Below, one piece after another: positions 61-34,141 of a stretch of DNA of 34,141 nt (the first letter of the stretch is position 1; the number at the start of each line of letters is the position of its first letter). Origin of the DNA: Deltaproteobacteria bacterium (lineage in GTDB: Bacteria > Myxococcota_A > Polyangia > Polyangiales > Houyiibacteriaceae); the NCBI GenBank assembly GCA_034670305.1, contig JAXMNT010000069.1, positions 1 through 34,141 on the forward strand, written 5' to 3'. The notes below the pieces were generated by a model. The model worked only from the letters and a program-made list of their open reading frames with translations, had not been told where the DNA came from and made no database searches. The position numbers were made by a program, and so were the translations under genes.

Positions 61-124
61 CGCGGGCAAGGGCACGGGCAAGGGCAACGGCAAGGGAGCA
101 GGTCGCTTTTCAGCGACCTGCTAG
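61..124 (-). mobile_element. End of a CTAG-anchored repeat/MITE-like element extending off the left edge
   Basis: Minus strand reads CTAG-CAGGTCGCTGAAAAGCGACCTGC-T, then five CCCTTG/CCGTTG/CCCGTG hexamers, then CCCGCG. Hairpin AGCAGGTCGC/GCGACCTGCT at 97-122. Same architecture as 34017-34098. Confidence 0.6.
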
Positions 125-491: not shown

Positions 492-720
492 ACCGAACCG
501 GATGCCGAATCCGAATCCGAAGGAGAGGATGCGCGGCTCCCGTGCCCGTGCCCGTGCCCGTGCCCGTGCCCGCGTTTCCGAATCCGAATCCGAACTGAAG
601 CCGAAGCCGATCCCGAAGCCGATCCCGAAGCCGATCCCGAAGCCGATGCCGATCCCGAAGCCGAAGCCGAAGCCGAAGCCGACGCCGATGCCGATGCCGA
701 TGCCGATGCCGAGGCCGATG
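492..720. repeat. Composite hexamer-repeat tract: CCGAAT, (CCCGTG)5-CCCGCG, CCGAAG/CCGATC/CCGATG
   Basis: Period-6 repeats seen directly; (CCCGTG)x5 at 539-568. Confidence 0.95.
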
Positions 721-6624: not shown

Positions 6625-7959
6625 TCAGTAGCGGTAGTGCTCGGGCTTGAACGGGCCCTTCGCGGGCACGCCGAGGTACTCGGACTGCTTCGGGGTCAGC
6701 GAGGTCAGCTTGGCGCCGAGCTTGCCGAGGTGAAGGGCGGCGACCTTCTCGTCGAGCGCCTTCGGGAGCACGTAGACCTCACCCTTCTTGTAGGTGTCGT
6801 CGTTGCGGTGCTGCCAGAGTTCCAGCTGGGCGAGCACCTGGTTGGTGAAGCTCGAGCTCATCACGAAGCTCGGGTGGCCGGTGCCACACGCGAGGTTCAC
6901 GAGGCGACCGCGCGCGAGCACGATGATCTTCTTGCCGTCCGGGAAGATGAAGTGGTCGACCGGACCCTCGTCCTTGATGCGCTCTTCCTTCACGCCGTTC
7001 TTGGCGTCCGTGAGGTAGGCGATCTCGATCTCCGAGTCGAAGTGACCGATGTTGCAGAGGATCGCTTCGTCCTTCATCTGCTTCATGTGCGCGCCGGTGA
7101 TGACGTCGCAGCAGCCGGTCGCGGTCACGAAGATGTCGCCCTGGCTGGCGGCTTCGTCCATCGTCACGACCTGGAAACCTTCCATCGCGGCCTGAAGCGC
7201 GCAGATCGGATCCACTTCCGTCACCATGACGCGGGCGCCCGAACGGACGAGCGCCTGGGCGCAGCCCTTGCCGACATCGCCGTAGCCCGCGACGACGCAG
7301 ATCTTGCCCGCGAGCATGACGTCGGTGGCGCGCTTGATGCCGTCGACGAGGGACTCACGACAGCCGTAGAGGTTGTCGAACTTCGACTTCGTCACCGAGT
7401 CGTTCACGTTGATGGCCGGGCACTTGAGCTGTCCCTGCTTGGCCATCTCGTAGAGGCGGTGCACGCCGGTGGTGGTCTCTTCGGAGAGGCCGATGATCTT
7501 GTCGGCGCCTTCGAAGAGGTGCGGGTACTTCTCGTGCGCGATGATCGTCAGATCGCCGCCGTCGTCGAGGATGAGGTTCGGGGCCTTGCCGCCTTCGAAC
7601 GACGCGAGCTGCTGGTGGATGCACCAGTCGTACTCTTCTTCCGTCTCGCCCTTCCAGGCGAAGACCGGCACACCACTCTCGGCGATGGCGGCCGCGGCGT
7701 GGTCCTGCGTCGAGAAGATGTTGCAGCTGGTCCAGGTCACTTCGGCGCCGAGATCCGTGAGGGTCTCGATGAGCACCGCGGTCTGGATCGTCATGTGGAG
7801 GCAGCCGGCGATGCGTGCGCCTTCGAGGGGCTTTTTGCCTGCGTGCTCCACGCGGAGCGCCATGAGGCCGGGCATCTCTTTTTCGGCGATGTCGATCTCG
7901 CGGCGTCCGAACGCGGCGAGGGTGATGTCGGCAACTTTGTACTTCTTCTGATCGGTCAT
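6625..7959 (-). CDS. ahcY: Adenosylhomocysteinase (SAH hydrolase)
   Basis: [59 protein letters not shown]-terminal [15 protein letters not shown] before ATG 7959. Confidence 0.98.
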
Positions 7960-8033
7960 GTTGGCTCCTGTGCGAGTCGATCTCGCGGACGTTGGTGGGG
8001 TCTGGAAAAGGGTTGAGTTCAGAGAGAACGAAA

Positions 8034-9020
8034 TCAGTGGCGGCTCGTGTGGCGCGCACGCGCCGAGAGGACTTGCCAGTCGAGGTGGCCGTCGGGGCCA
8101 TCGCCGCACCGCGCGGCCGGAATGATGGACACCGCCGCGTCCTCGAGCCCCACGTCGCGTGCGAGCTGGAGAAGTTCGTCGGCGTCGAACCCGAGCCACG
8201 CGTCGGCCTGGTCGTCGCGAAGGCGTTCGTCTTCGTGTGCGGCGTAGTCGATCACCAGCAGCACACCGCCGGGCGCGAGCATGGGGACGAGGGCTTCGAG
8301 CGCCTGTTTCGGACGCGGCATGTGGTGGAGGACGCGCGCCGCGAAGACCGCGTCGGCGCCCCCGAGTTCGGCGACCCGTGCCAACACCGCGGCGTCTCCG
8401 AGTTCGCCGCGCACGAGCTCCACGTTCTCGAACCGGCGGGCGCGGCTGCGTTCGCGCGCAAGCTTCAGCTGGGCTTCGGCGCGATCGAACGCCACGACCT
8501 CGTCGAAGATCGGCGCGAGCACTTCGAGCAAGCTGCCGTCGCCGGTGCCGACGTCGACCGCGAGTCGGCGGCGCGAGACGAGCGGGGCGAGCGCGGTCAG
8601 GTAGGCGGAGAGTTCGCCCGGCCAGCGGGCGGTGGGTGCGCGGGCGGTCTCGAAGAACGCACGGGCGGGTTCGTCGCGTCGGCGCACCACATCCGCGACG
8701 CGGCCGAGGCTGCCGTCTTCGGTGCAGAGCGCGCGACCTGCGGCGAGCGCGTCCGCGACCACTGGGTCGTGTCCGGCTCGGGCGTCGAGCTTCAGGTACA
8801 CGCGGGTGCCTTCTTTGCGCACCGAGAGCAGCTCGGTGGCGCGGAGCGGCTTGAGGTGTCGGGAGACGTTGGGCTGGGAATCTCCGACCAGCTCCGCCAA
8901 CTCACCGATGGCGAGTTCTTCGACTGCAGTCAGGGCCAGGAGGCGCAGGCGCATCGGTTCGCCAAGGAGCCGATAAAGCTCCCACCGTCGTTCCGTTCGG
9001 GCCAGTCCGCTGACGTCCAC
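8034..9020 (-). CDS. ArsR HTH plus SAM-methyltransferase fusion regulator (SahR-like)
   Basis: [10 protein letters not shown]...[24 protein letters not shown] motif I; VLHH; directly upstream of ahcY. Confidence 0.9.
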
Positions 9021-26368: not shown

Positions 26369-27874
26369 TCAGAACGCGGACGGGTCGCATCGGAGGCCAA
26401 GCAGCTTCGCGCGGGCTTCGCCGACCAAGAACAGCGAGCCGGCGACGACGACGCGGCCCTCCGGACCGGCTGCTTCGGCGGCCCACCGCAGGGCTTCGTC
26501 GAGGGTGGCGGCGCCGCGTCCTTCTCGGATGGCTTGGTAGACGTCCGTGGTCTCGGGGGCGCGGTGGATGTTCGGCAGGGCGTAGATCCGTTGGGCCACG
26601 AGGTCGTCGAAGCACGGCAGCATGGCGGCGAGATCTTTGTCGCGCAGCGCACCGAAGAGAAGGACGGTTCGGGGGAGGGCGGCGTCGGCACCCGCATCGG
26701 CCACCGCCACAGCAGCAGCCACAGCACCAGCACCAGCCACAGCACCAGCGTCAGCCACAGCACCAGCGTCAGCCCCAGCACCAGCGTCAGCCAAAGCACC
26801 AGCGTCAGCCAAAGCACCAGCGTCAGCCACAGCACTTGCACCAACATCGGCCCCAGCCCCAGCAGCTCCAGCCGCGGCCTCGGCCCGGTTTGGGATCTGC
26901 AGCGCGCGGAGGTGGGCGGCGAGGGCCTCGCAGCCTTCGGGGTTGTGGGCGGCGTCGAGCAGGTACTCCTGGCCTTCGATCACGAGGCGCTCGAGGCGGG
27001 CGGGCCACGTGGCCTGCGCGAGGCCTTCTTCGATCGCCCGCTCCGGTACGTCGAGTCCGGACGCTCGGGTTCGGTGCAGCGCGGCGACGGCGACGGCTGC
27101 GTTGTGCGCTTGGTGGGCGCCGGCCAGTCCGAGTGGGTACGCGCGTTCGGTCTCTCCGATGCGGATGTGTGCGCGCCCGCAACCGTCTTCGAGCGCTTCG
27201 TAGCGCGTGTCGAATGCGTCGCCGATCTCCCACAAGTCGCAGTCGCGCTCCTCTGCGATCGATCCCACCACCGCCCGTGGCCCCGGCGCGCGGACGCCGC
27301 TCACTGCGGGGCGACCCTGCTCGAAGATGCCGGCCTTCTCGGCGGCGATGAGCTCTTCGGTGTCGCCGAGGATGCCGGGGTGTTCGAGCGTGATGCCGGT
27401 GACGACGCTGACGATCCGGCCCGAGACGGTGTTGGTCGCATCCAGCCGTCCGCCGAGCCCGACTTCGAGCACCACCACATCGCACGCGTGGTCTCGAAAA
27501 CTCTCGAATGCGAGCAGCACCGAGATCTCGAAGAACGTCAGCGGCGGCATCGCGTCGGACTCGTCGCGAATCGAAGTCAGGCGCGTCGCGATCTCCTCGT
27601 CGCCGATCGGTTCGCCGTCGATCCGGAACCGCTCGGCGTAGCGGTGAAGATGCGGCGAGGTGAAGAGCCCGGTTCGATGACCCGCGGCGCGGAGCGCGCG
27701 TTCGATCATCGCACAGGTACTGCCTTTGCCGTTGCTGCCGGTCACGTGCACGACGCGCAGATCCCGCTCTGGATGGCCCCGGTGTTCGAGGCCGCCCACC
27801 ATGCGGTCGAGTTCGTAGCGCACGCCCCGCGCGCTCAGCCCATACACCCACTCGAGCGCGTCGAGGTAGTTCAT
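26369..27874 (-). CDS. folC: Folylpolyglutamate/dihydrofolate synthase with an in-frame Ala-rich repeat insertion
   Basis: HVTGSNGKGST, FTSPHL, EVGLGGRLDATN, WPARLE, LDAAHNP, VAGSLFLVG. Confidence 0.95.
   Translation of the reverse strand: MNYLDALEWVYGLSARGVRYELDRMVGGLEHRGHPERDLRVVHVTGSNGKGSTCAMIERALRAAGHRTGLFTSPHLHRYAERFRIDGEPIGDEEIATRLTSIRDESDAMPPLTFFEISVLLAFESFRDHACDVVVLEVGLGGRLDATNTVSGRIVSVVTGITLEHPGILGDTEELIAAEKAGIFEQGRPAVSGVRAPGPRAVVGSIAEERDCDLWEIGDAFDTRYEALEDGCGRAHIRIGETERAYPLGLAGAHQAHNAAVAVAALHRTRASGLDVPERAIEEGLAQATWPARLERLVIEGQEYLLDAAHNPEGCEALAAHLRALQIPNRAEAAAGAAGAGADVGASAVADAGALADAGALADAGAGADAGAVADAGAVAGAGAVAAAVAVADAGADAALPRTVLLFGALRDKDLAAMLPCFDDLVAQRIYALPNIHRAPETTDVYQAIREGRGAATLDEALRWAAEAAGPEGRVVVAGSLFLVGEARAKLLGLRCDPSAF
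26680..26880. repeat. 18-bp/hexamer repeat (CAGCCACAGCACCAGCGT-like) inside folC
   Basis: Seen directly; encodes ADAGAL/ADAGAV units in the folC frame. Confidence 0.9.
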
Positions 27875-28611
27875 CCGACCACGACCGCCAGGTGGCGACC
27901 GGTGGTGCCGTCGTCTCGGCGGTAGGAGAAGAAGTCGTCCGCGTCGTCGTAGGTGCACCCGCCGACGTCGTCGATCTGGGTCACACCGATCGTGGCAAGT
28001 TGCGCCGAGACGATCGCGGCCAGGTCGACGTGCGGTTTCGGTCGGCTTCGGTCGATGGCGGCGGCGCCATACGACACCGCCTCCAGCCGCGTCGCGACTT
28101 CTTCGCCGACTTCGAAGCGCGGCATCCGAATGTGCGGCCCGATCGCCACCAGCAGCTCCTCGGCGCCGCGCCCACCGAGGATCGTGACCGCCGCCCGGCC
28201 GGCGATGCCGGCTTCCACCCCGCGCCAACCCGCGTGCACCGCGGCCACCCGCGACGTGCCCTTCACGGCCATCAGGATCGGCACGCAATCGGCCACCCGG
28301 ATCCCCACCGCGACCCCGGCTTCGACCGCAAACACGCCGTCCGCTTCTTCCTGGCGGACCACCTCGGGCGCTTGCCCGCGCCGAACCTGGCGGAGCATGG
28401 CCCCGTGCACCTGGGACACTTCGAAGAGCCCTTCGTAGCCGATGGCTGCGGCCAGCCGCCGATGGTTCTCTTCGACACGGTCGGCCACATCGCCGAGCCC
28501 GCGGCCGAGGTTGGCGCTCGCAAACGCGCCTTCGCTGACCCCACCGGTCCGGAGCGAGAACCCATGGCGAAACCCGTGAGCGGTCAGGAGGCTGGACTGT
28601 CGTATCTGCAA
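27871..28611 (-). CDS. pgeF: Peptidoglycan editing factor / YfiH-family laccase-domain protein
   Basis: HGFSLRTGGVS, QVHG, ADCVPIL, AVHAGWRG, FFSYRRD; ATGA overlap with folC. Confidence 0.95.
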   Translation of the reverse strand: MQIRQSSLLTAHGFRHGFSLRTGGVSEGAFASANLGRGLGDVADRVEENHRRLAAAIGYEGLFEVSQVHGAMLRQVRRGQAPEVVRQEEADGVFAVEAGVAVGIRVADCVPILMAVKGTSRVAAVHAGWRGVEAGIAGRAAVTILGGRGAEELLVAIGPHIRMPRFEVGEEVATRLEAVSYGAAAIDRSRPKPHVDLAAIVSAQLATIGVTQIDDVGGCTYDDADDFFSYRRDDGTTGRHLAVVVG

Positions 28612-28735
28612 CCGGTTGCCTCAGAGGTGGAGAGACGTCTGTCGGGCCGAACGGCCATCGCGCCCGCGGAATACGCCATCCCGCCCCAAAAACAAACCGC
28701 GCCCCGGCCGCCTCGTCGCCTTTGGACCATGGGTG

Positions 28736-28936
28736 ACTTCGCTTCGCGCAAAGTGCTGTGCACTTTGACGGTCTTCGGCGCTTGACAGCGCTCTCGACCG
28801 TTTGTTGTCCGAGGGGGATGGGCGCATCCCCCTCCGGCCTGCGGGGCACAGCCCCTCCGGCCTCCTCCCCAACTTCGCTTCGCGCAAAGTGCTGTGCACT
28901 TTGACGGTCTTCGGCGCTTGACAGCGCTCTCGACCG
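28736..28936. repeat. Perfect 65-bp direct repeat (28736-28800 and 28872-28936) around a 71-bp hairpin-containing spacer
   Basis: Seen directly. Confidence 0.95.
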
Positions 28937-28945
28937 GGTTAAAAA
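28918..28945 (+). promoter_or_regulatory. Putative sigma70 promoter of the tRNA
   Basis: TTGACA (28918-28923), 16 bp spacer, TAAAAA (28940-28945), 17 bp before the tRNA 5' end. Confidence 0.55.
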
Positions 28946-28962
28946 GCCGGTCCCTGACACCT

Positions 28963-29049
28963 GCGGATGTGGCGGAATTGGCAGACGCGCTGGATTAAGG
29001 ATCCAGTGGGGTAAAACCCGTGGAGGTTCGACTCCTCTCGTCCGCACCA
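28963..29049 (+). tRNA. tRNA-Leu, anticodon AAG
   Basis: Acceptor GCGGATG/CGTCCGC, discriminator A, encoded CCA; D-loop GGAATTGGCAGAC; anticodon arm CTGGA-TTAAGGA-TCCAG; long variable arm GGG-GTAAAA-CCC; T arm GGAGG-TTCGACT-CCTCT. Confidence 0.95.
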
Positions 29050-29064
29050 GATGTACCCAGGGTT

Positions 29065-29094
29065 GAAAAGGGAGCGCACCAGCGCTCCCTTTTC
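29065..29094 (+). terminator. Intrinsic terminator after the tRNA
   Basis: GAAAAGGGAGCGC-ACCA-GCGCTCCCTTTTC followed by TCATTT. Confidence 0.9.
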
Positions 29095-29114
29095 TCATTT
29101 CTCGGCGAAGCCGA

Positions 29115-29150
29115 CCCTTGCCCCTGCCCTTGCCCCTGCCCTTGCCCCTG
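29115..29150. repeat. (CCCTTG CCCCTG)x3 hexamer tract
   Basis: Seen directly. Confidence 0.9.
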
Positions 29151-29216
29151 GTTTGAAGCCGGGCATCGCCTCAACTTCCCGTCGAAGTTCGACGGCGGTG
29201 TACTAGTCTCTCCCCC

Positions 29217-30233
29217 ATGTCGGTGTTCCTCGACGCGCTCCACCGCCGTCCCACCTCCCACACCCCGATCTGGCTCATGCGGCAGGCCGGGCGGTACCAG
29301 GCCTCCTACCAAGCGATCCGCAGCAAGGTGGAGTTCCTCGAGCTCTGCAAGACGCCGGAGCTCGCCTGCCAGGTGACCTTCGACGCGGTCGATCAACTCG
29401 GGGTGGACGCAGCGATCATCTTCGCGGACATCCTGTTGATCCTCGAGCCGCTCGGCATCCCCTTCTCGTTCGAGAAGGGACACGGCCCGAAGATCCACAC
29501 GCCCATCCGAACCGCGGCGCAGGTCGACGCGATGCCGAACTCGATCGACGTGGAGTCGCTCGGCTACGTGATGGAAGCGATCAAGCTCGCGCGCCGCGCC
29601 ATCGATGTGCCGCTCATCGGGTTCGCTGGCGCGCCGTTCACGCTCGCGAGCTACGCGATCGAAGGGGCCGGTTCGAAGAACTACTTCGCGACCAAGAAGA
29701 TCATGTACGGCGACGAAGGCATGTGGCGCGCACTGATGGAGAAGTTCTCCACCGCGCTCGGCCAGTACCTCAACGCGCAGATCGATGCGGGCGCGCAGTG
29801 CATCCAGATCTTCGACAGCTGGGTGGGTTGCCTGAGCCCCGCGGACTACCGCCGCTTCGTGCTGCCCTACTCGCGCAAGGTGCTCGCGGCTGTGAAGGGC
29901 CGCGTCCCGACCATTCACTTCGGGACCGGCAACCCGAGCCTGTACCCGCTCCTCAAAGAAGCGGGCGGGACCACGATCGGCGTGGACTGGCGCACGCCCA
30001 TCGACGAGATGTGGGACACGCTCGGCGACGACGTCGGGGTCATGGGCAACCTCGAACCAGCCATGCTGCTGGCGCCCCGTGAGGTGATGAACGCGAGGGC
30101 GAGCGAGATCCTTCGCCGCACCCAGGGACGCCGCGGCCACATCTTCAACCTGGGCCACGGCATCATGCCCACCGCGACGGTGGCGCAGACCAAAGCACTC
30201 GTGGACCACGTACACGAAGTCTCCTCGGGCTGA
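29217..30233 (+). CDS. hemE: Uroporphyrinogen decarboxylase
   Basis: PIWLMRQAGRY, DAAIIFADIL, LIGFAGAPFTLASY, QIFDSW, HIFNLGHGI. Confidence 0.98.
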   Translation: MSVFLDALHRRPTSHTPIWLMRQAGRYQASYQAIRSKVEFLELCKTPELACQVTFDAVDQLGVDAAIIFADILLILEPLGIPFSFEKGHGPKIHTPIRTAAQVDAMPNSIDVESLGYVMEAIKLARRAIDVPLIGFAGAPFTLASYAIEGAGSKNYFATKKIMYGDEGMWRALMEKFSTALGQYLNAQIDAGAQCIQIFDSWVGCLSPADYRRFVLPYSRKVLAAVKGRVPTIHFGTGNPSLYPLLKEAGGTTIGVDWRTPIDEMWDTLGDDVGVMGNLEPAMLLAPREVMNARASEILRRTQGRRGHIFNLGHGIMPTATVAQTKALVDHVHEVSSG

Positions 30234-30236
30234 GCC

Positions 30237-31700
30237 GTGCGTGTGGTCGTGCTCGGCGCGGGCATCAGCGGCATGTCCGCCGCCCGCCGGCTCCGGGAGC
30301 TCGGTGCCGAGGTTCGTGTGTTCGAAGCGTCGGATCGGGCGGGCGGTCTGCTGCGCAGCGAGCGCGTGGCATCGGACTCCGGACCGCTGGTCCTCGACCG
30401 CGGACCCGACAGCATTCTGGCAACGAAGCCCGCGGCGGTGGCGCTCGCCGAAGCGCTCGGTCTCGGACCACGCATCGTGCGCACGCGCCCCGAAGGCCGC
30501 GGCGCCTACGTGCTCTGCCGCGGGAGACTCGAACGCATCCCGAATGGCTTTCACGTGGTCGCGCCGAGCGACCTGCGCGCGCTCTGGCGTTCACCGATCC
30601 TCTCGACCGGCGGAAAGGTTCGAGCGAGCACGGAAGTGCTGCGGGCGTTCGCGTCCCGCAAACGCAGCCGCCAAGCGCCGCAAGACCAGAGCCTCGAGTC
30701 CTTCGTGCAACTCCGCTTTGGCGACGAGCTGCTGGCGCGGCTCGCCCAGCCCATGGCAGGCGGCATCTACGGCGCGCCACCCCACCGGCTCGGGCTCGGC
30801 TCCACGATGCCGCGGTTTCTGGATCTCGCCTCCGCCCACGGGAGCGTGACCCGCGGATTGCAGAAGTCGCAGGCGGCGGGCGCGGCCACGAGCCAAGGCG
30901 CGCGCTACGGCGCGTTCGTCAGCTTCGATGGCGGCATGGGGGTCTTGCCCGAGGCGATGGCGGCCGATCTCGAGGGCCACATCGAGACCTCGTGGGCCGC
31001 GTGGAGTCTGGAGCGGGCCGGCCAAAAGTGGCGCGTCTCGTTGCGGCACGGTCCGACCGGTGAAGGCACCCGCACCGAAGACGCCGATGGGGTCGTGCTC
31101 GCACTCGGTGCCCACACGAGCGCCGAGCTCCTCGAGGATCACGATCCGGTCGCCGCGGCACACATCCAGTCCATCCCGCGCGGGAGCGCTGCGATCGTCA
31201 CGCTCGCGTACAAACGCAGCGACGTGAAGCATCCGCTCGATGCGGCGGGGGTGGTGGTGCCTTCCGTGGAGGGGCGCGCGATGTTGGCCAGTACGTGGAG
31301 CAGCCAGAAGTGGCCGGGCCGCGCGCCCGACGACACCGCGCTCTTCCGCGTGTTCCTCGGTGGCCATGGCCAGGACGACGTCGTGCACGCCTCCGAAGGC
31401 CACCTCGTCCGGCTCGCGCACCTCGAACTCGCGCAGATGCTCGGCATCGAGGGGGAACCGACCTTGACGCGGCTCGATCGGTACGTAGACGTCATGCCGA
31501 GGTATGAAGTGGGGCACGCGCGCAGGATGAACACGCTCGATGCGCGCATCGCGCTGCTTCGCGGTGTGGCGGTGGCTGGCAACTTCCACCGTGGGGTCGG
31601 CATCCCGGATTCCATCGCCGACGGAGCGCGCGCGGCGGAACAGTTGGTCGCCGATCTAGGATCGGGGAAGACCGCTGAAGGAGTGAACGATTGGGTCTGA
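30237..31700 (+). CDS. hemG: FAD-dependent protoporphyrinogen/coproporphyrinogen oxidase (HemY type)
   Basis: VVVLGAGISG, EASDRAGG, GPDS, GGIYG, MPRYEVGH, GVGIPD. Confidence 0.92.
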   Translation: MRVVVLGAGISGMSAARRLRELGAEVRVFEASDRAGGLLRSERVASDSGPLVLDRGPDSILATKPAAVALAEALGLGPRIVRTRPEGRGAYVLCRGRLERIPNGFHVVAPSDLRALWRSPILSTGGKVRASTEVLRAFASRKRSRQAPQDQSLESFVQLRFGDELLARLAQPMAGGIYGAPPHRLGLGSTMPRFLDLASAHGSVTRGLQKSQAAGAATSQGARYGAFVSFDGGMGVLPEAMAADLEGHIETSWAAWSLERAGQKWRVSLRHGPTGEGTRTEDADGVVLALGAHTSAELLEDHDPVAAAHIQSIPRGSAAIVTLAYKRSDVKHPLDAAGVVVPSVEGRAMLASTWSSQKWPGRAPDDTALFRVFLGGHGQDDVVHASEGHLVRLAHLELAQMLGIEGEPTLTRLDRYVDVMPRYEVGHARRMNTLDARIALLRGVAVAGNFHRGVGIPDSIADGARAAEQLVADLGSGKTAEGVNDWV

Positions 31701-33118
31701 GTTCGAAACAGCGACGCGGCGAAGCCGAACGAAGCGACCAAGCCGTGTCGCCGGGACCAGCGTCGAGGATTGTCGGAAGCCTGGCACCCCCGCGCGTGGA
31801 CCGCCTGGCGGAGGCCTCGGGTCGCGACGATCTGCGGGCGTACTTCGAAGACACCTGGGCGCTGACGGAATGGTTGTTCCAGCACCTCACGGACGAGTGC
31901 CTGTGCGAGCAACCGGACCCGCGCCGGCAACCGCTCGTCTTCTATCTGGGTCACGCGGCGGTGTTCTATGTGAACAAGCTGCGCATGGCCGGGCTGCTCG
32001 CCGATCCGGTGGACCCCGAACTCGAGTCTGGGTTGGCACGGGGCGTCGACCCCAAAGACGCGGCCGACTTGGCTGCGCGCGTGTGGCCGGATGGCGGGGT
32101 CGTGCGCACCTACCGCACACAGGTGAAGGCTGAGGTCGAGCGGGTGATCGACCGTCTCGAACTCGAAACGTGCGGACCGGACGCGCCGGTGTGGTCGCTC
32201 TTGATGGCGATGGAACACGACCGCATCCATTTCGAGACGAGCAGCGTGTTGATGCGCCAGACCGACGTGCCGCTCACGCCGCCGGATGGTTGGCGGCCGG
32301 TGCATCCGACCGAGTCGGCGCGCGTGGACGCCCAGTGGCTGCGGCTTCCTCCGCGCCGGGTGCGGCTCGGGCGGCCGGGCCACGCCCAGACCTTTGCGTG
32401 GGACAACGAACTCGGTCGGCTGGAAGCGGACGTGCCGTCCTTCGATGTGTCGACGACACTCATCACGCAGCACGAGTTCGCGACGTTCGTTCGGGCTGGC
32501 GGCTACCGCGAACGGCGGTTCTGGTCGCCGGAGGGATGGGGGTGGAACCAGCGCACCCACTGCGCGCGGCCGCCGTTCTGGACCGAAGAAACGCTCGATG
32601 GTGGTCCGGTGCGCTCGACCTTCGGTCTGCGCCCCGTGGTCTGGGATGCGCCGGTCGAAGTGACCGCCCACGAAGCGCACGCGTACACCCAGTGGATGAG
32701 CGCCGAACACCCGGACCGGCCCGAGGTTCGGTTGCCGACCGAACTCGAGTGGGCGTCCTTCAGCCTCGACGCGCCGCGCGTGCACGACGACCACGCGACG
32801 CACCCCGGTTTCAACCTGGCGCTGCGGCATCATGGACCGCGGCCGGTGCGTACGTCGGTGAAGACACCGCTCGGGATCCACGATGCGGTCGGCAACGTCT
32901 GGCAGTGGCTTGCGGACGACTTCCAACCGCTTCCCGGATTCGAGAAACACGACCTCTACCCGGACTTCTCAGAGCCGTACTTCGACGACCAACACGCGGT
33001 GCTGCGTGGAGGCTCGTGGGCGTCGTCGGGCACCAGCGCATCGCGTCACTACCGCCTCTGGTTTCGACGGGACTTCCTGCAGCACGCGGGCTTCCGGACC
33101 GCCCGGTCGATCGTTTGA
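31691..33118 (+). CDS. ovoA: OvoA-like 5-histidylcysteine sulfoxide synthase (DinB_2 + FGE-sulfatase) lacking the C-terminal methyltransferase; start uncertain
   Basis: PLVFYLGHAAVFYVNKL, MEHDRIHFETSSVLMRQ (HX3HXE), WDNELG, GNVWQW, LYPDFS, GGSW, FRRDFLQHAGFR. Confidence 0.85.
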   Translation: MGLSSKQRRGEAERSDQAVSPGPASRIVGSLAPPRVDRLAEASGRDDLRAYFEDTWALTEWLFQHLTDECLCEQPDPRRQPLVFYLGHAAVFYVNKLRMAGLLADPVDPELESGLARGVDPKDAADLAARVWPDGGVVRTYRTQVKAEVERVIDRLELETCGPDAPVWSLLMAMEHDRIHFETSSVLMRQTDVPLTPPDGWRPVHPTESARVDAQWLRLPPRRVRLGRPGHAQTFAWDNELGRLEADVPSFDVSTTLITQHEFATFVRAGGYRERRFWSPEGWGWNQRTHCARPPFWTEETLDGGPVRSTFGLRPVVWDAPVEVTAHEAHAYTQWMSAEHPDRPEVRLPTELEWASFSLDAPRVHDDHATHPGFNLALRHHGPRPVRTSVKTPLGIHDAVGNVWQWLADDFQPLPGFEKHDLYPDFSEPYFDDQHAVLRGGSWASSGTSASRHYRLWFRRDFLQHAGFRTARSIV

Positions 33119-34020
33119 CCCACTCGGCCCATCAGCGGGCGCTGATGGCTGCCGCCGCCGCGCTCGGCGCAGAGACCGAGGTCCTGGATGCTCTGTCCGA
33201 TCGCGTCGCGTACCGCCGAGCCACGCGTGCAGTCGAGGTGGTGGGGGGCACGTGGTTCTCGTGTCTGGACAGCTCGACCGCGGCGCTGCTCGACGACAAA
33301 CGCGCGACGAAGGCGCTGTTTCGTCGCTTGCGGGTGCCGACGTTGGCGGACGCGGAGACCGAAGCGGACTGGGACGTCTTGCTCGCGTCCGGGCCGCTCG
33401 TGGTGAAGCCGCGGACTGGCACGGGAGGGGAGGGGGTGTCGCTGAACCTGACCTCGTCTCGGGCTGTGCGGGAGGCGGTCGCGGCGCTCGACGATGCGGT
33501 CGTCGAACCGTTCCATGACGGTGCCGATCTGCGGATCCATGCGCTCGGGGGACGGGTGCTCGCGGCGTGCCGGCGGGACCCGGCGTTCGTGTTGGGCGAC
33601 GGGGAGCGGGCGCTTGCTGCCTTGGTCGAGGCGCTCGAAGCCCACACCCAGAAGCACAACCCCGCCAACCGGGTGTTCGTGGATCCCGACGTGCTGGGCC
33701 CGGTGTCCATGGACGACGTGCCTGCGCTGGGGGTTCGCGTGCCGCTCAACCGACTGTGCAACATGGCGCTTGGCGCGATCGCCACCGACGTGAGCGACGC
33801 GCTGCACCCCGCGTTCGCGTCTTGGGTCGAGCGACTCACCGAGGCGCTCGACCTTCCGGTGTTCGGGCTCGATGTCTTGACGAACGATCCAGCAGCGGAC
33901 CCAGAGGGTGGGGCGGTCGCGCTGGAGATCAACGCGCGCCCCGACTGGCTGCACCACACCTTCAGCGAAGGCCGGACCCACGACATCGCGACCGCGCTCT
34001 TGCGCCACTTCCTTGACTAG
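33115..34020 (+). CDS. ATP-grasp ligase (GshF/cyanophycin-synthetase-like ATP-grasp domain)
   Basis: DKRATKALF, LVVKPRTGTGGEGVS, DLRI, RDPAFVLGDG, FGLDVL, LEINARP; TTG start overlaps the upstream TGA (TTGA). Confidence 0.85.
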   Translation: MTHSAHQRALMAAAAALGAETEVLDALSDRVAYRRATRAVEVVGGTWFSCLDSSTAALLDDKRATKALFRRLRVPTLADAETEADWDVLLASGPLVVKPRTGTGGEGVSLNLTSSRAVREAVAALDDAVVEPFHDGADLRIHALGGRVLAACRRDPAFVLGDGERALAALVEALEAHTQKHNPANRVFVDPDVLGPVSMDDVPALGVRVPLNRLCNMALGAIATDVSDALHPAFASWVERLTEALDLPVFGLDVLTNDPAADPEGGAVALEINARPDWLHHTFSEGRTHDIATALLRHFLD

Positions 34021-34098
34021 CAGGTTGCTGAAGAACGCCCGCAGGGCGTTCTCGCAGCCTGCCCCTTGCCCCTGCCCTTGCCTTTGCCCTTGCCCGCG
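34017..34098 (+). mobile_element. End of a CTAG-anchored element extending off the right edge
   Basis: CTAG-CAGGTTGCTGAA, inner hairpin GAACGCCC-GCA-GGGCGTTC, GCAGCCTGC, five CCCTTG/CCCCTG/CCTTTG hexamers, CCCGCG. Confidence 0.6.
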
Positions 34099-34100
34099 GA

Positions 34101-34141
34101 TCAGCGGTCAGATCGCTTGATCAGCGCGACGAGCATCGCGA
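34101..34141 (-). CDS. 3' end of a truncated CDS, possibly a four-helix-bundle (IVS/bAvd-like) protein
   Basis: Minus strand reads ...xAMLVALIKRSDR-stop (TGA at 34103-34101), resembling the IVAML..LI C-terminal helix of that family; only 13 codons visible. Confidence 0.4.
   Translation of the reverse strand, partial: AMLVALIKRSDR

Follow-up and report, generated by a model that had tools for sequence, protein, structure and literature searches.

A sulfoxide synthase/ATP-grasp gene pair of a Polyangiales genome, probably of the TgiA-II/TgiB type that forms a 2-thiohistidine dipeptide

Described pathways to thiohistidine dipeptides

Gene pairs composed of a non-heme-iron sulfoxide synthase (NHISS) and an ATP-grasp ligase were reported on 1 October 2026 by Abbott et al. 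(J Am Chem Soc; PMC13674229) to produce small sulfur-containing histidine dipeptides. About 100 such clusters were detected in at least six phyla, mostly in MAGs. All the NHISSs tested from these clusters, among them those of a Myxococcales MAG and of a Sandaracinaceae MAG, form the C2-linked sulfoxide of histidine, despite their position in the OvoA branch. They are active with free cysteine and histidine, and hercynine is not used by AshA. The tested ligases act downstream of the C-S lyase step. ATP-grasp enzymes of the subfamilies 3, 8, 9, 12 and 14 refuse 5-thiohistidine and produce thioglutine (gamma-L-glutamyl-2-thiohistidine, where the gamma-carboxyl group of glutamate is joined to 2-thiohistidine by the ligase), a compound isolated from Streptomyces varsoviensis. 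AshB apart, each of the five soluble ligases from MAGs or Streptomyces gave thioglutine; AshB uses Phe, and subfamily 9 also yields some Gly dipeptide. The remaining imidazole proton of the sulfoxide lies near 7.9 ppm for C5 and at 7.23 ppm for C2 linkage, and bromobimane-labelled thioglutine has an [M+H]+ of 507.1656. The ligases are termed 'RimK-like' and TgiB is described as 'from the RimK Pfam'. The uncharacterised 'TgiX' occurs only alongside another ATP-grasp (all PMC13674229). In a different system, according to PMC12631010, a 5-thiohistidine N-acetyltransferase sometimes adjoins a truncated OvoA.

This kind of pathway is thus already explained by the 2026 work, and the pair analysed here is real and probably an instance of it. 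The initial annotation had proposed an undescribed low-molecular-weight thiol, a proposal superseded by that publication. Its more general idea, that the pair makes a thiohistidine peptide, is very probably correct and has been demonstrated experimentally for such gene pairs (PMC13674229).

The gene pair and its transcription unit

The window, i.e. the whole stretch of DNA analysed (34,141 nt), corresponds to an entire contig. The features of the locus are listed in Table 1.

Table 1. Coordinates of the gene pair and of the associated features in the window.
Feature	Position	Strand	Evidence
hemE (uroporphyrinogen decarboxylase), at the 5' end of the apparent four-gene unit	29217..30233	+	TIGR01464, 383 bits (cut-off 303); PF01208
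hemY-type protoporphyrinogen oxidase	30237..31700	+	TIGR00562, 227.7 bits (cut-off 97.85)
Shine-Dalgarno-like GAAGGAG	31677..31683	+	direct sequence reading; 7 nt 5' of the synthase TTG
Stand-alone NHISS, OvoA branch, 'LWF' type	31691..33118	+	TIGR04344, DinB_2 + FGE, motif, LWF clade
Stand-alone ATP-grasp ligase, 301 aa, C-terminal signature PDWLHHTFSEGRTHD (WLHHTFSE)	33115..34020	+	TTGA overlap, partial ATP-grasp matches, linkage
Long GC-rich hairpin directly 3' of the ligase stop	34020..34062 (approx.)	+	RNA fold

The synthase ORF begins with TTG and encodes 475 aa, in agreement with the public gene call for the identical protein (P0011, 475 aa). As initially annotated, its TGA stop codon (33116-33118) overlaps the TTG start of the ligase (33115-33117) in the sequence TTGA. 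The public gene call of the ligase (P0003, 291 aa) starts at the ATG in position 33145, but an alignment with 11 homologues favours the TTG; the ATG start would remove a conserved N-terminal helix.

On the 5' side, the last 10 nt of hemY are also the first 10 nt of the synthase ORF, and a terminator-like hairpin with a T-run is localized at 29065-29094, between the upstream tRNA-Leu and hemE. Synthase and ligase are translationally coupled and, by read-through, appear to be co-transcribed with hemE-hemY in this genome. The hemY-synthase adjacency was absent from all other loci tested and from G011, a genome of the same family. The hairpin found 3' of the ligase has a dG of -40.1 kcal/mol (shuffle mean -32.25; z -2.65; this stability is reached by 1 of 200 shuffles). 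It carries no T-tail and was therefore missed by the terminator scan; it suggests that the transcription unit ends there. The contig ends 121 nt past the ligase stop, so the lack of genes downstream is uninformative by itself.

A Pfam search over 26 other ORFs of the window agrees with the earlier statement that no methyltransferase, C-S lyase or selenium genes are adjacent: neither PLP lyase nor selenium genes were recovered, and the sole methyltransferase among the window ORFs scanned is fused to ArsR (8034-9020), 23 kb off. The 96%-complete genome yielded no EgtD, no ovoA_Cterm-type methyltransferase and, above cut-off, neither an EgtE nor a second NHISS. It contains seven generic class-V PLP enzymes.

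Family and predicted regiochemistry of the synthase

The synthase is composed of the Pfam domains DinB_2 and FGE-sulfatase. In profile searches it scores 429.5 bits with TIGR04344 (ovoA_Nterm, cut-off 400), against 193.6 with the SenA model and 185.9 with the EgtB model. It terminates directly past the FGE domain and has no methyltransferase domain, since its C-terminus lies 5 residues beyond the last aligned model position. Its previous placement in the OvoA branch without methyltransferase is thus confirmed. The NCBIfam model bears the name 5-histidylcysteine sulfoxide synthase, and relatives are named likewise in public records. All the motifs cited in the initial annotation were found: FYLGH (residues 84-88), GVDPKDAADL (118-127), EHDRIHFETSSVLMRQ (from residue 175), LYPDFS (from 422) and FRRDFLQHAGFR (from 458). 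The solved OvoA 8KHQ carries GVDEMSWDDL at the site aligned with GVDPKDAADL, in agreement with the initial annotation.

After mapping onto OvoA 8KHQ, with the OvoA residue numbering of section 7 of PMC10696552, the iron triad H88/H176/H180, the catalytic Y423 and the Cys-binding R79 and Y85 are conserved. The composite motif reads Y423-F426-L-W-F-R, with the last four residues at L456-W457-F458-R459. According to the preprint 10.1101/2024.04.10.588772, the published motifs are ...YF(Y/F)AFx for OvoA and ...YxNWFx for EgtB-IV; Ala is the residue of the His-accepting, C5-directing OvoA and OvsA, and a bulky aromatic residue that of the hercynine-accepting, C2-directing enzymes. Trp457 occupies the site of Ala in OvoA and OvsA. 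In a tree of 103 rows, each motif class forms one side of a branch, with supports of 100 (OvoA), 100 (EgtB-IV), 91 (LWF), 100 (DFMQ) and 99 (FFHF), and the window synthase clusters with Myxococcota rows and with G011 (support 93).

The initial annotation assumed an OvoA-like enzyme acting at C5 of the imidazole, with a ligase that peptidylates 5-thiohistidine to a 5-thiohistidine conjugate. We consider this quite unlikely. The motif is LWF and not (Y/F)AF, with Trp457 in place of Ala, and the 44 OvoA-motif rows form a different clade; the passed TIGR04344 cut-off, a position on the same side as OvoA in the main division of the family and the public names of the relatives are nevertheless in line with C5 chemistry. 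The tested NHISSs of ATP-grasp clusters all act at C2 and their ligases gave no product with 5-thiohistidine (PMC13674229). A tailoring enzyme of 5-thiohistidine is known in the N-acetyltransferase sometimes found beside a truncated OvoA (PMC12631010). EgtB-IV, the nearest solved structure, shows that C2 chemistry is possible on the OvoA branch. We predict a TgiA-II-like enzyme that adds Cys onto C2 of histidine.

Among the solved structures compared, a set outside which AshA 9PHY lies, the best match was EgtB-IV 8VIG (317.9 bits), followed by OvoA 8KHQ (260.4 bits). A grouping with EgtB, named beforehand as evidence against an OvoA-like synthase, is hence found for the nearest structure, yet EgtB-IV is itself an OvoA-branch enzyme with C2 chemistry. 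This match, the W-F-R part common to both motifs and the resemblance of the ligase to the glutathione-forming ATP-grasp part of GshF would suit an ergothioneine enzyme using hercynine and Cys, or a ligase that supplies a peptidyl thiol donor (gamma-Glu-Cys) as EgtA does for EgtB-I. Both are very improbable. The window synthase and 117 of its 120 best homologues have Leu in place of the Asn of NWF; the 20 cyanobacterial EgtB-IV rows, all without the ligase (0/20), belong to a separate clade; and EgtD is missing from the 96%-complete genome, therefore no hercynine is expected. Free cysteine is indicated by the retained Arg79 and Tyr85 and by a lid loop about as long as that of OvoA, the published NHISSs use free Cys and His, AshA does not use hercynine, and the tested ligases act after the C-S lyase step (PMC13674229). 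The peptidyl donor suggested earlier finds no support here.

The ligase, its pairing with the synthase and the predicted product

The alignment of 12 sequences of the ligase family displays 38 invariant columns. The window ligase matches cyanophycin synthetase (119 bits), N-acetylglutaminylglutamine synthetase (102 bits) and GshF (71 bits) in their ATP-grasp parts only, far below the respective family cut-offs (850, 569 and 425), and scores 82.9 bits with the solved CphA1. The Pfam scan gave no PF08443 (RimK) match at E <= 0.01. In the Atlas, a homologue with 37% identity has RimK-like clusters as its neighbours, and the predicted model of a ligase homologue has a TM of 0.90 to GshAB and of 0.85 to cyanophycin synthetase. 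The matched domains of these three enzymes are themselves of PF08443 type, which softens, without removing, the discrepancy with the published term 'RimK-like'. The ligase-family profile also strongly matches tandem ATP-grasp/acylphosphatase proteins devoid of the NHISS domain, so the function is not fixed by homology alone.

The pairing was analysed from both sides. A search starting with the ligase gave 35 distinct loci, three of them cut at a contig end. An NHISS is located directly upstream on the same strand in 27 of the 32 assessable loci, from at least five phyla. All 27 lack the methyltransferase tail; 22 carry the motif LWF and five a second motif, DFMQ. For four of the five loci without adjacent NHISS, the genome holds an LWF-type NHISS elsewhere. 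From the synthase side, an independent NHISS seed gave 80 loci, three of which were dropped as broken or cut. The ligase adjoins 6 of 8 LWF enzymes and none of the 69 others (OvoA-motif 0/44, EgtB-IV-motif 0/20, FFHF-motif 0/5); in two genomes an LWF NHISS is present but the ligase is missing. The C-terminal tails of the 44 OvoA-motif loci all measure about 243-263 aa; a single one, that of L102, was scanned and proved to be a methyltransferase. The synthase/ATP-grasp coupling is consequently conserved across phyla, contrary to the isolated pairing that would have spoken against the initial annotation.

On architecture, motif, taxonomy and linkage, the published enzymes being compared by description, the pair is probably a TgiA-II/TgiB-type operon for a 2-thiohistidine dipeptide, thioglutine being the best candidate, and its ligase a predicted TgiB-like gamma-Glu:2-thiohistidine ligase. 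The choice of Glu is extrapolated from the published enzymes. Fairly unlikely is a C2 route on histidine with another ligase product (another amino acid, an alpha linkage or a non-Glu acyl group), or a window ligase of 'TgiX' type accompanied by a RimK-like ligase that forms the gamma-Glu bond. This latter ligase exists on contig C3, unlinked to the pair, and is an orthologue, with 55% identity, of the RimK-like ligase found in clusters. AshB takes Phe and subfamily 9 gives some Gly dipeptide, but thioglutine came from all five soluble non-AshB ligases (PMC13674229). The window ligase is at most 44% identical to the GTDB representative ligases, the two ligase families show no more than a remote resemblance (profile-profile identity 20%), and the 'RimK' of the paper suits the PF08443 family A3 better than the window ligase. 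Against this, the PF08443-type ligase was found beside the NHISS/ligase pair in six other loci, always together with a window-type ligase (6/6), and therefore itself matches the published definition of TgiX. Since TgiX needs a second ATP-grasp and the window family is mostly the sole ligase partner of the NHISS, a PF08443 ligase as TgiB with the window ligase as TgiX is unlikely.

In the TgiA-II/TgiB-type pathway, as family membership suggests, the iron enzyme would use O2 to attach free Cys to free L-histidine at C2, with the 2-(S-cysteinyl sulfoxide) of histidine as product. The cysteine skeleton would be removed by a housekeeping PLP-dependent C-S lyase or a cysteine-desulfurase-like enzyme encoded elsewhere, the locus having no dedicated gene, to leave 2-thiohistidine. 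The ATP-grasp ligase would then form the acyl phosphate of the glutamate gamma-carboxylate and join the activated Glu to the alpha-amino group of 2-thiohistidine. The product, a predicted low-molecular-weight thiol/thione that presumably serves as an antioxidant or binds metal, is not expected to be methylated, because the genome lacks both an OvoA-type N-pi methyltransferase and EgtD, the enzyme that forms hercynine.

The tgi clusters (TgiA-II and TgiB; PMC13674229) resemble the window in their two-gene NHISS/ATP-grasp organization without lyase or methyltransferase, in an OvoA-branch NHISS with EgtB-like aromatic contacts and in their sources, Myxococcota-type MAGs among several phyla. Some contain a second ATP-grasp; here the second RimK-like ligase is on another contig, and the pair is joined to a hemE-hemY unit. 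The ash cluster of Amycolatopsis (AshA/AshB/AshC; actinothioneine, Phe-2-thiohistidine; PMC13674229) shares an NHISS of the OvoA branch that modifies histidine at C2, as predicted for the window synthase, and an ATP-grasp that then adds an amino acid to the amino group of 2-thiohistidine. It differs by the vestigial methyltransferase domain of AshA and an MFS transporter, both absent from the window, by the preference of AshB for Phe and by a motif that appears to be H-F-Y instead of L-W-F, as mapped by the spacing of published residue numbers and not by alignment.

Canonical OvoA (8KHQ) has the same DinB + FGE fold, 3-His iron site, catalytic Tyr and Cys-binding Arg/Tyr, but possesses a C-terminal N-pi methyltransferase, the motif (Y/F)-A-F, its own clade and C5 chemistry, where C2 is predicted for the window. 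The cyanobacterial EgtB-IV (8VIG, 8VIH) is likewise a stand-alone enzyme of about 460 aa with a GVDP-type lid loop, W-F-R and, as predicted here, C2 chemistry on the OvoA branch; it has Asn before Trp and uses hercynine, whereas the window synthase has Leu, a conserved ligase partner and a genome without EgtD. The system of PMC12631010 also combines a methyltransferase-less OvoA homologue with a modifier of the alpha-amino group of a thiohistidine, but this modifier is an acetyl-CoA-dependent GNAT, specific for 5-thiohistidine and refusing 2-thiohistidine, and the window has no GNAT. Finally, in sequence the window ligase is closest to the ATP-grasp modules of CphA1, N-acetylglutaminylglutamine synthetase and GshF; it consists of this module alone, without Mur-ligase, GNAT or Glu-Cys-ligase domain, and carries its own C-terminal signature.

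Gene organisation of the locus

The source genome (7.9 Mb, 96% complete, about 68% G+C) carries the synthase and the ligase at the end of a complete contig of 34,141 nt, whose final 5 kb are composed of four co-oriented genes with a spacing near zero. These genes encode HemE, a HemY-type protoporphyrinogen oxidase, a non-heme-iron sulfoxide synthase (NHISS, protein P0001) and an ATP-grasp ligase (protein P0002). The synthase begins with a TTG inside the end of hemY (overlap of 10 nt), with the sequence GAAGGAG located 7 nt 5' of it, and the public gene call has the identical start. The synthase and the ligase overlap by 4 nt, between the TGA of the former (33116-33118) and the TTG of the latter (33115-33117); an alignment of the ligase with 11 homologues favours this TTG over an ATG at 33145. 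The contig ends 121 nt past the ligase. Because of this tight co-orientation, of the hairpin after the ligase and of the T-run hairpin before hemE, the four genes look like a single transcription unit. No sigma-70-type promoter was detected in the region 28500-34141, and the tRNA was the only known RNA, riboswitches included, detected in the region 28400-34141. The adjacency to hemE and hemY is absent from all the other loci examined, being unique to this genome among them, and this linkage may be without significance.

Features of the contig at and around the four-gene unit, with additional observations
Feature	Position	Strand	Evidence or remark
hemE	29217-30233	+	TIGR01464, 383 bits
hemY-type protoporphyrinogen oxidase	30237-31700	+	TIGR00562, 227.7 bits
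Sulfoxide synthase P0001, 475 aa	31691-33118	+	DinB_2 and FGE-sulfatase domains, TIGR04344
ATP-grasp ligase P0002, 301 aa	33115-34020	+	ATP-grasp segment matches
tRNA-Leu(AAG)	28963-29049		Upstream of hemE
T-run hairpin	29065-29094		At the end of the tRNA-Leu(AAG) gene, before hemE
Long hairpin	34020-34062		3' of the ligase; -40.1 kcal/mol, z -2.65
65-nt direct repeat, first copy	28736-28800		Upstream of tRNA-Leu(AAG)
65-nt direct repeat, second copy	28872-28936		Upstream of tRNA-Leu(AAG)
CCCYTG run	65-96	-	
CCCYTG run	539-570		
CCCYTG run	29103-29159		Upstream of hemE
CCCYTG run	34051-34095		Just past the ligase hairpin
FolC/Mur-ligase-like gene	~26369-27700	-	Low-complexity insert
S-adenosylhomocysteine hydrolase	6625-8199	-	Region 6625-9020
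ArsR-type HTH-SAM-dependent methyltransferase fusion	8034-9020	-	Region 6625-9020

The initial annotation had reported the overlap of the synthase stop with the ligase TTG and the lack of a lyase, a selenium gene or a nearby methyltransferase; both observations were reproduced, the latter on the 26 further ORFs of the window. The ArsR-fused methyltransferase, found beside an S-adenosylhomocysteine hydrolase, is 23 kb from the pair and is not of the OvoA type.

Several repeated sequences were also noticed. The two copies of an exact direct repeat are 136 nt apart and each carries one TTGACA; this repeat may represent a duplicated promoter region. Runs of the CCCYTG hexamer (12 matches to the 20-mer, against 0.02 expected by chance) bracket the four-gene unit and adjoin both ends of the contig, where they may have caused the assembly break. 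Finally, the FolC/Mur-ligase-like gene encodes a long low-complexity Ala/Gly/Asp insert before its C-terminal domain, composed of repeats of the ADAGAL/ADAGAV type.

Active-site classes of the synthase and conservation of the pairing

P0001 obtains 429.5 bits on the OvoA N-terminal model TIGR04344 (cut-off 400), 193.6 bits on the SenA model and 185.9 bits on the EgtB model, and its best matches among solved structures are EgtB-IV and OvoA. The protein stops just past the FGE domain, without a methyltransferase, as the initial annotation had described; the motifs quoted in that annotation are all in place, including GVDPKDAADL where solved OvoA has GVDEMSWDDL. The residues of P0001 were mapped with the OvoA numbering (PMC10696552) and by alignment to the structure 8KHQ. 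P0001 retains the three histidines that bind iron (H88, H176, H180), the catalytic tyrosine (Y423) and both residues that bind cysteine (R79, Y85), and its diagnostic positions are occupied by F426, then by L456-W457-F458-R459. According to published composite motifs (10.1101/2024.04.10.588772), OvoA ends in Y-F-(Y/F)-A-F and EgtB-IV in Y-x-N-W-F, an Ala being present in the histidine-accepting, C5-directing OvoA and OvsA where the hercynine-accepting, C2-directing enzymes carry a bulky aromatic residue. In P0001, Trp457 is found at the position of this Ala.

The TIGR04344 score speaks for an assignment of P0001 to OvoA; the motif Y-F-L-W-F, the position in a separate clade and the absence of a methyltransferase tail led us to reject it, and no match to the N-pi methyltransferase model TIGR04345 was found at E <= 0.001 anywhere in the 96%-complete genome. 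An assignment to EgtB-IV was also discarded, as Leu replaces Asn in the motif and P0001 is placed in a clade apart from the 20 cyanobacterial rows; moreover, no EgtD was found in the genome, which therefore has no hercynine supply. This genome contains neither another NHISS over the cut-off nor a dedicated EgtE. It holds seven generic class-V PLP enzymes, which could act as C-S lyase.

The conservation of the pair was analysed from two ligase-seeded searches of species-representative genomes. They yielded 35 distinct loci, every one in a MAG, from the Myxococcota, Bacteroidota, Acidobacteriota, Alpha- and Gammaproteobacteria and Campylobacterota. Of these loci, 32 could be assessed, since in the other three the contig breaks off at the ligase. 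An OvoA-branch synthase is located upstream on the same strand in 27 of them, directly adjacent in 25 cases and separated by one intervening gene in two, and all 27 synthase frames end right past the FGE domain. Among the five loci lacking an adjacent synthase, four come from genomes with a synthase of the same type elsewhere, and the fifth genome gave a weak match only. The flanking genes differ from locus to locus and bear no relation to one another: an all-against-all comparison of 738 ORFs of related loci revealed no third conserved gene (transporter, lyase or methyltransferase), and besides the NHISS and the ligase, the only recurring elements were antisense shadow ORFs and a second ligase, which is RimK-like. 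The distribution among the relatives is patchy, since the ligase profile matches 5 of 41 genomes, the source genome included, at E <= 1e-10. Three of the other matches were followed up and only that of G011, a genome of the same family, is a true orthologue with an adjoining NHISS; the two others are ligases with 26-28% identity and without NHISS. The remaining match, in genome G027, is weaker (E 1.4e-11).

The 27 ligase-linked synthases are divided into 22 with the motif L-W-F-R and five with the motif D-F-M-Q. The latter (loci L004, L007, L008, L013 and L034, from MAGs of Alpha- and Gammaproteobacteria, Acidobacteriota and Campylobacterota) form a second, deeply separate clade, score 280-325 bits on TIGR04344, under the cut-off, and have a partner from the same ligase family. 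L-W-F-R is displayed by 117 of the 120 best homologues of P0001 in a large protein collection, all 120 being 419-499 aa long.

To avoid circularity, a search seeded with the synthase was also carried out, which returned 80 of more than 594 loci, three broken or cut ones being dropped. The OvoA motif was found in 44 loci, each with about 243-263 additional residues at the C-terminus (the single tail scanned, from L102, is a methyltransferase), the EgtB-IV motif in 20 tail-less loci, nearly all from cyanobacteria, the motif F-F-H-F in five loci and L-W-F in eight loci without tail. The ligase is adjacent in six of the eight L-W-F loci, one being cut by a contig end, and in none of the 69 loci with other motifs. 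In the two MAGs where the L-W-F synthase lacks a neighbouring ligase, none was detected elsewhere in the assembled sequence either, which may be incomplete.

In a tree of 103 rows, each motif class corresponds to one side of a branch, with support values of 100 for OvoA, EgtB-IV and D-F-M-Q, 99 for F-F-H-F and 91 for L-W-F; the tree does not resolve how the three large groups branch relative to one another. P0001 groups with the Myxococcota rows and G011 with a support of 93. Thus L-W-F, or D-F-M in the second clade, as opposed to (Y/F)-A-F, provides a simple marker of the ligase-linked synthases, which separated them from the ovothiol and ergothioneine enzymes in every row examined. These analyses correspond to the computational checks proposed in the initial annotation: the OvoA-branch score agrees with its reading of the synthase, but P0001 lies in its own L-W-F clade, apart from the OvoA and EgtB-IV rows. 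The conservation of the pairing across phyla was borne out in both samples, and the coupling recurs with unrelated flanks.

Two observations concern the F-F-H-F class. In Bdellovibrionota MAGs (L088:3501-6419, L097, L109 and L129), these OvoA-branch synthases are extended at the C-terminus by about 505-517 aa. In L088, this extension corresponds to a decarboxylase domain of the PLP-dependent type (PF00282, 178.9 bits) and not to a methyltransferase; such a synthase-decarboxylase fusion hints at a thiohistamine-like product. A Polyangiales MAG (L116) displays the motif F-F-H-F yet has a methyltransferase tail.

The ATP-grasp ligases

The ATP-grasp segment of P0002 matches the models of cyanophycin synthetase (119 bits, cut-off 850), GshF (71 bits, cut-off 425) and N-acetylglutaminylglutamine synthetase (102 bits, far under the cut-off), the best solved match being CphA1 with 82.9 bits. 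A complete CphA1 or GshF was rejected, as the 301 aa of P0002 represent the ATP-grasp segment alone, without a Mur-ligase-like or Glu-Cys ligase domain. The family PF08443 is not reached at E <= 0.01. A homologue of P0002 with 37% identity has RimK-like clusters as Atlas neighbours, and its Atlas model aligns to GshAB with a TM of 0.90. Judged from its sequence, P0002 is an ATP-grasp enzyme of the cyanophycin-synthetase/GshF type, which Pfam also files under RimK. No paralogue of P0002 was found at another contig edge.

Among the best 150 matches of the ligase profile, the signature WLHHTFSE is present in 36 of the 61 short, single-domain proteins versus none of the 82 long, multidomain ones, so that the NHISS-linked family is marked by the single-domain format together with this signature. 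The 82 long proteins (in the range P0131-P0277) exceed 400 aa and reach 2393 aa. All 16 that were scanned carry ATP-grasp modules in tandem, in most cases two or three of them followed by an acylphosphatase domain at the C-terminus; PGA_cap and Mur-ligase domains are additionally present in one protein, and MmgE/PrpD in another. The ligase profile thus strongly matches tandem ATP-grasp/acylphosphatase proteins without a link to NHISS. Fused NHISS-ligase proteins, considered as Rosetta-stone evidence, were not retained, no NHISS domain being present in these 16 proteins.

In six loci (L019, L020, L024, L040, L054, which is that of G011, and L059), the pair has a true RimK-like ligase of the family PF08443 as a neighbour. 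The source genome contains an unlinked RimK-like ATP-grasp (PF08443, 53.9 bits) on another contig (C3:156530-157492, minus strand; locus L048:9501-10499), which is 55-56% identical to the cluster-linked second ligases of L019 and G011. Its neighbours, a trypsin-like peptidase, an alpha/beta hydrolase and a TMEM43-like protein, are unrelated. A profile-profile comparison gave 20% identity between the families of P0002 and PF08443.

Relation to the published thiohistidine-dipeptide clusters

A full-text literature search recovered a single earlier description of the NHISS/ATP-grasp pairing, that of Abbott et al. (J Am Chem Soc, 1 October 2026; PMC13674229), by which the "undescribed" pathway of the initial annotation has been overtaken. 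This paper describes about 100 clusters from at least six phyla, mostly in MAGs, and a network with 16 ligase subfamilies. Despite their position in the OvoA branch, four of its enzymes add Cys onto C2 of histidine, namely AshA, TgiA and the TgiA-II representatives of one Myxococcales and one Sandaracinaceae MAG; 2-thiohistidine is released by a non-specific lyase encoded elsewhere. Ligases of the subfamilies 3, 8, 9, 12 and 14 join the gamma-carboxyl of Glu to 2-thiohistidine, giving thioglutine (gamma-L-glutamyl-2-thiohistidine), which was isolated from Streptomyces varsoviensis; AshB uses Phe in place of Glu. In the same work, 5-thiohistidine gives no product with the tested ligases, and TgiX is a second ligase of some clusters, present only alongside another ATP-grasp, the role of which is left open. 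The label "RimK-like" used in that work is compatible with the family of P0002, because the ATP-grasp modules of cyanophycin synthetase and GshF are of the PF08443 type.

We infer that the family of P0002 corresponds to TgiB and the PF08443 type to TgiX, from their distribution, because the former is mostly alone with the synthase and the latter was seen only together with a ligase of the P0002 family. The RimK-like ligase of contig C3 could lengthen gamma-Glu-2-thiohistidine, either from the C-terminal end or by further glutamates; if so, the product would be a glutathione-like 2-thiohistidine tripeptide or an oligo-glutamyl thiol. A read-through from hemE-hemY would link the production of the thiol to the synthesis of tetrapyrroles; the thiol might, for instance, protect against oxidative damage for which porphyrin intermediates act as sensitisers. 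A joint reading, in which thioglutine is not the final product, the C3 ligase extends it and the pathway is tied to tetrapyrrole synthesis, appears improbable to us, and we regard the hemE-hemY linkage and the recurring second ligase as leads, not as findings.

The interpretation given in the initial annotation is partly right: the pair is conserved and very probably makes a thiohistidine peptide conjugate, but the C5 position proposed there for the sulfur is probably wrong. By analogy with the published enzymes, P0001 is predicted to form the C2 sulfoxide and P0002 to ligate 2-thiohistidine to the gamma-carboxyl of Glu, the latter substrate being extrapolated from the published ligases. The L-W-F stand-alone relatives (P0017-P0116) are named "5-histidylcysteine sulfoxide synthase" in the NCBI/JGI records, and "cyanophycin synthetase" is the public name of a relative of the ligase with 79% identity. 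Should the C2/thioglutine chemistry apply to them, these two names are probably misleading, the first one indicating the wrong regiochemistry.

The most likely identity of the window pair, which we hold with good though not full confidence, is a TgiA-II/TgiB-type thioglutine operon. The locus would then be a further member, in a large GC-rich genome nearest to Myxococcota MAGs, of a family experimentally defined only in October 2026. With the tgi-type clusters, it shares an NHISS beside an ATP-grasp, the position of the synthase in the OvoA branch, the aromatic contact residue, the taxonomy and the missing lyase.
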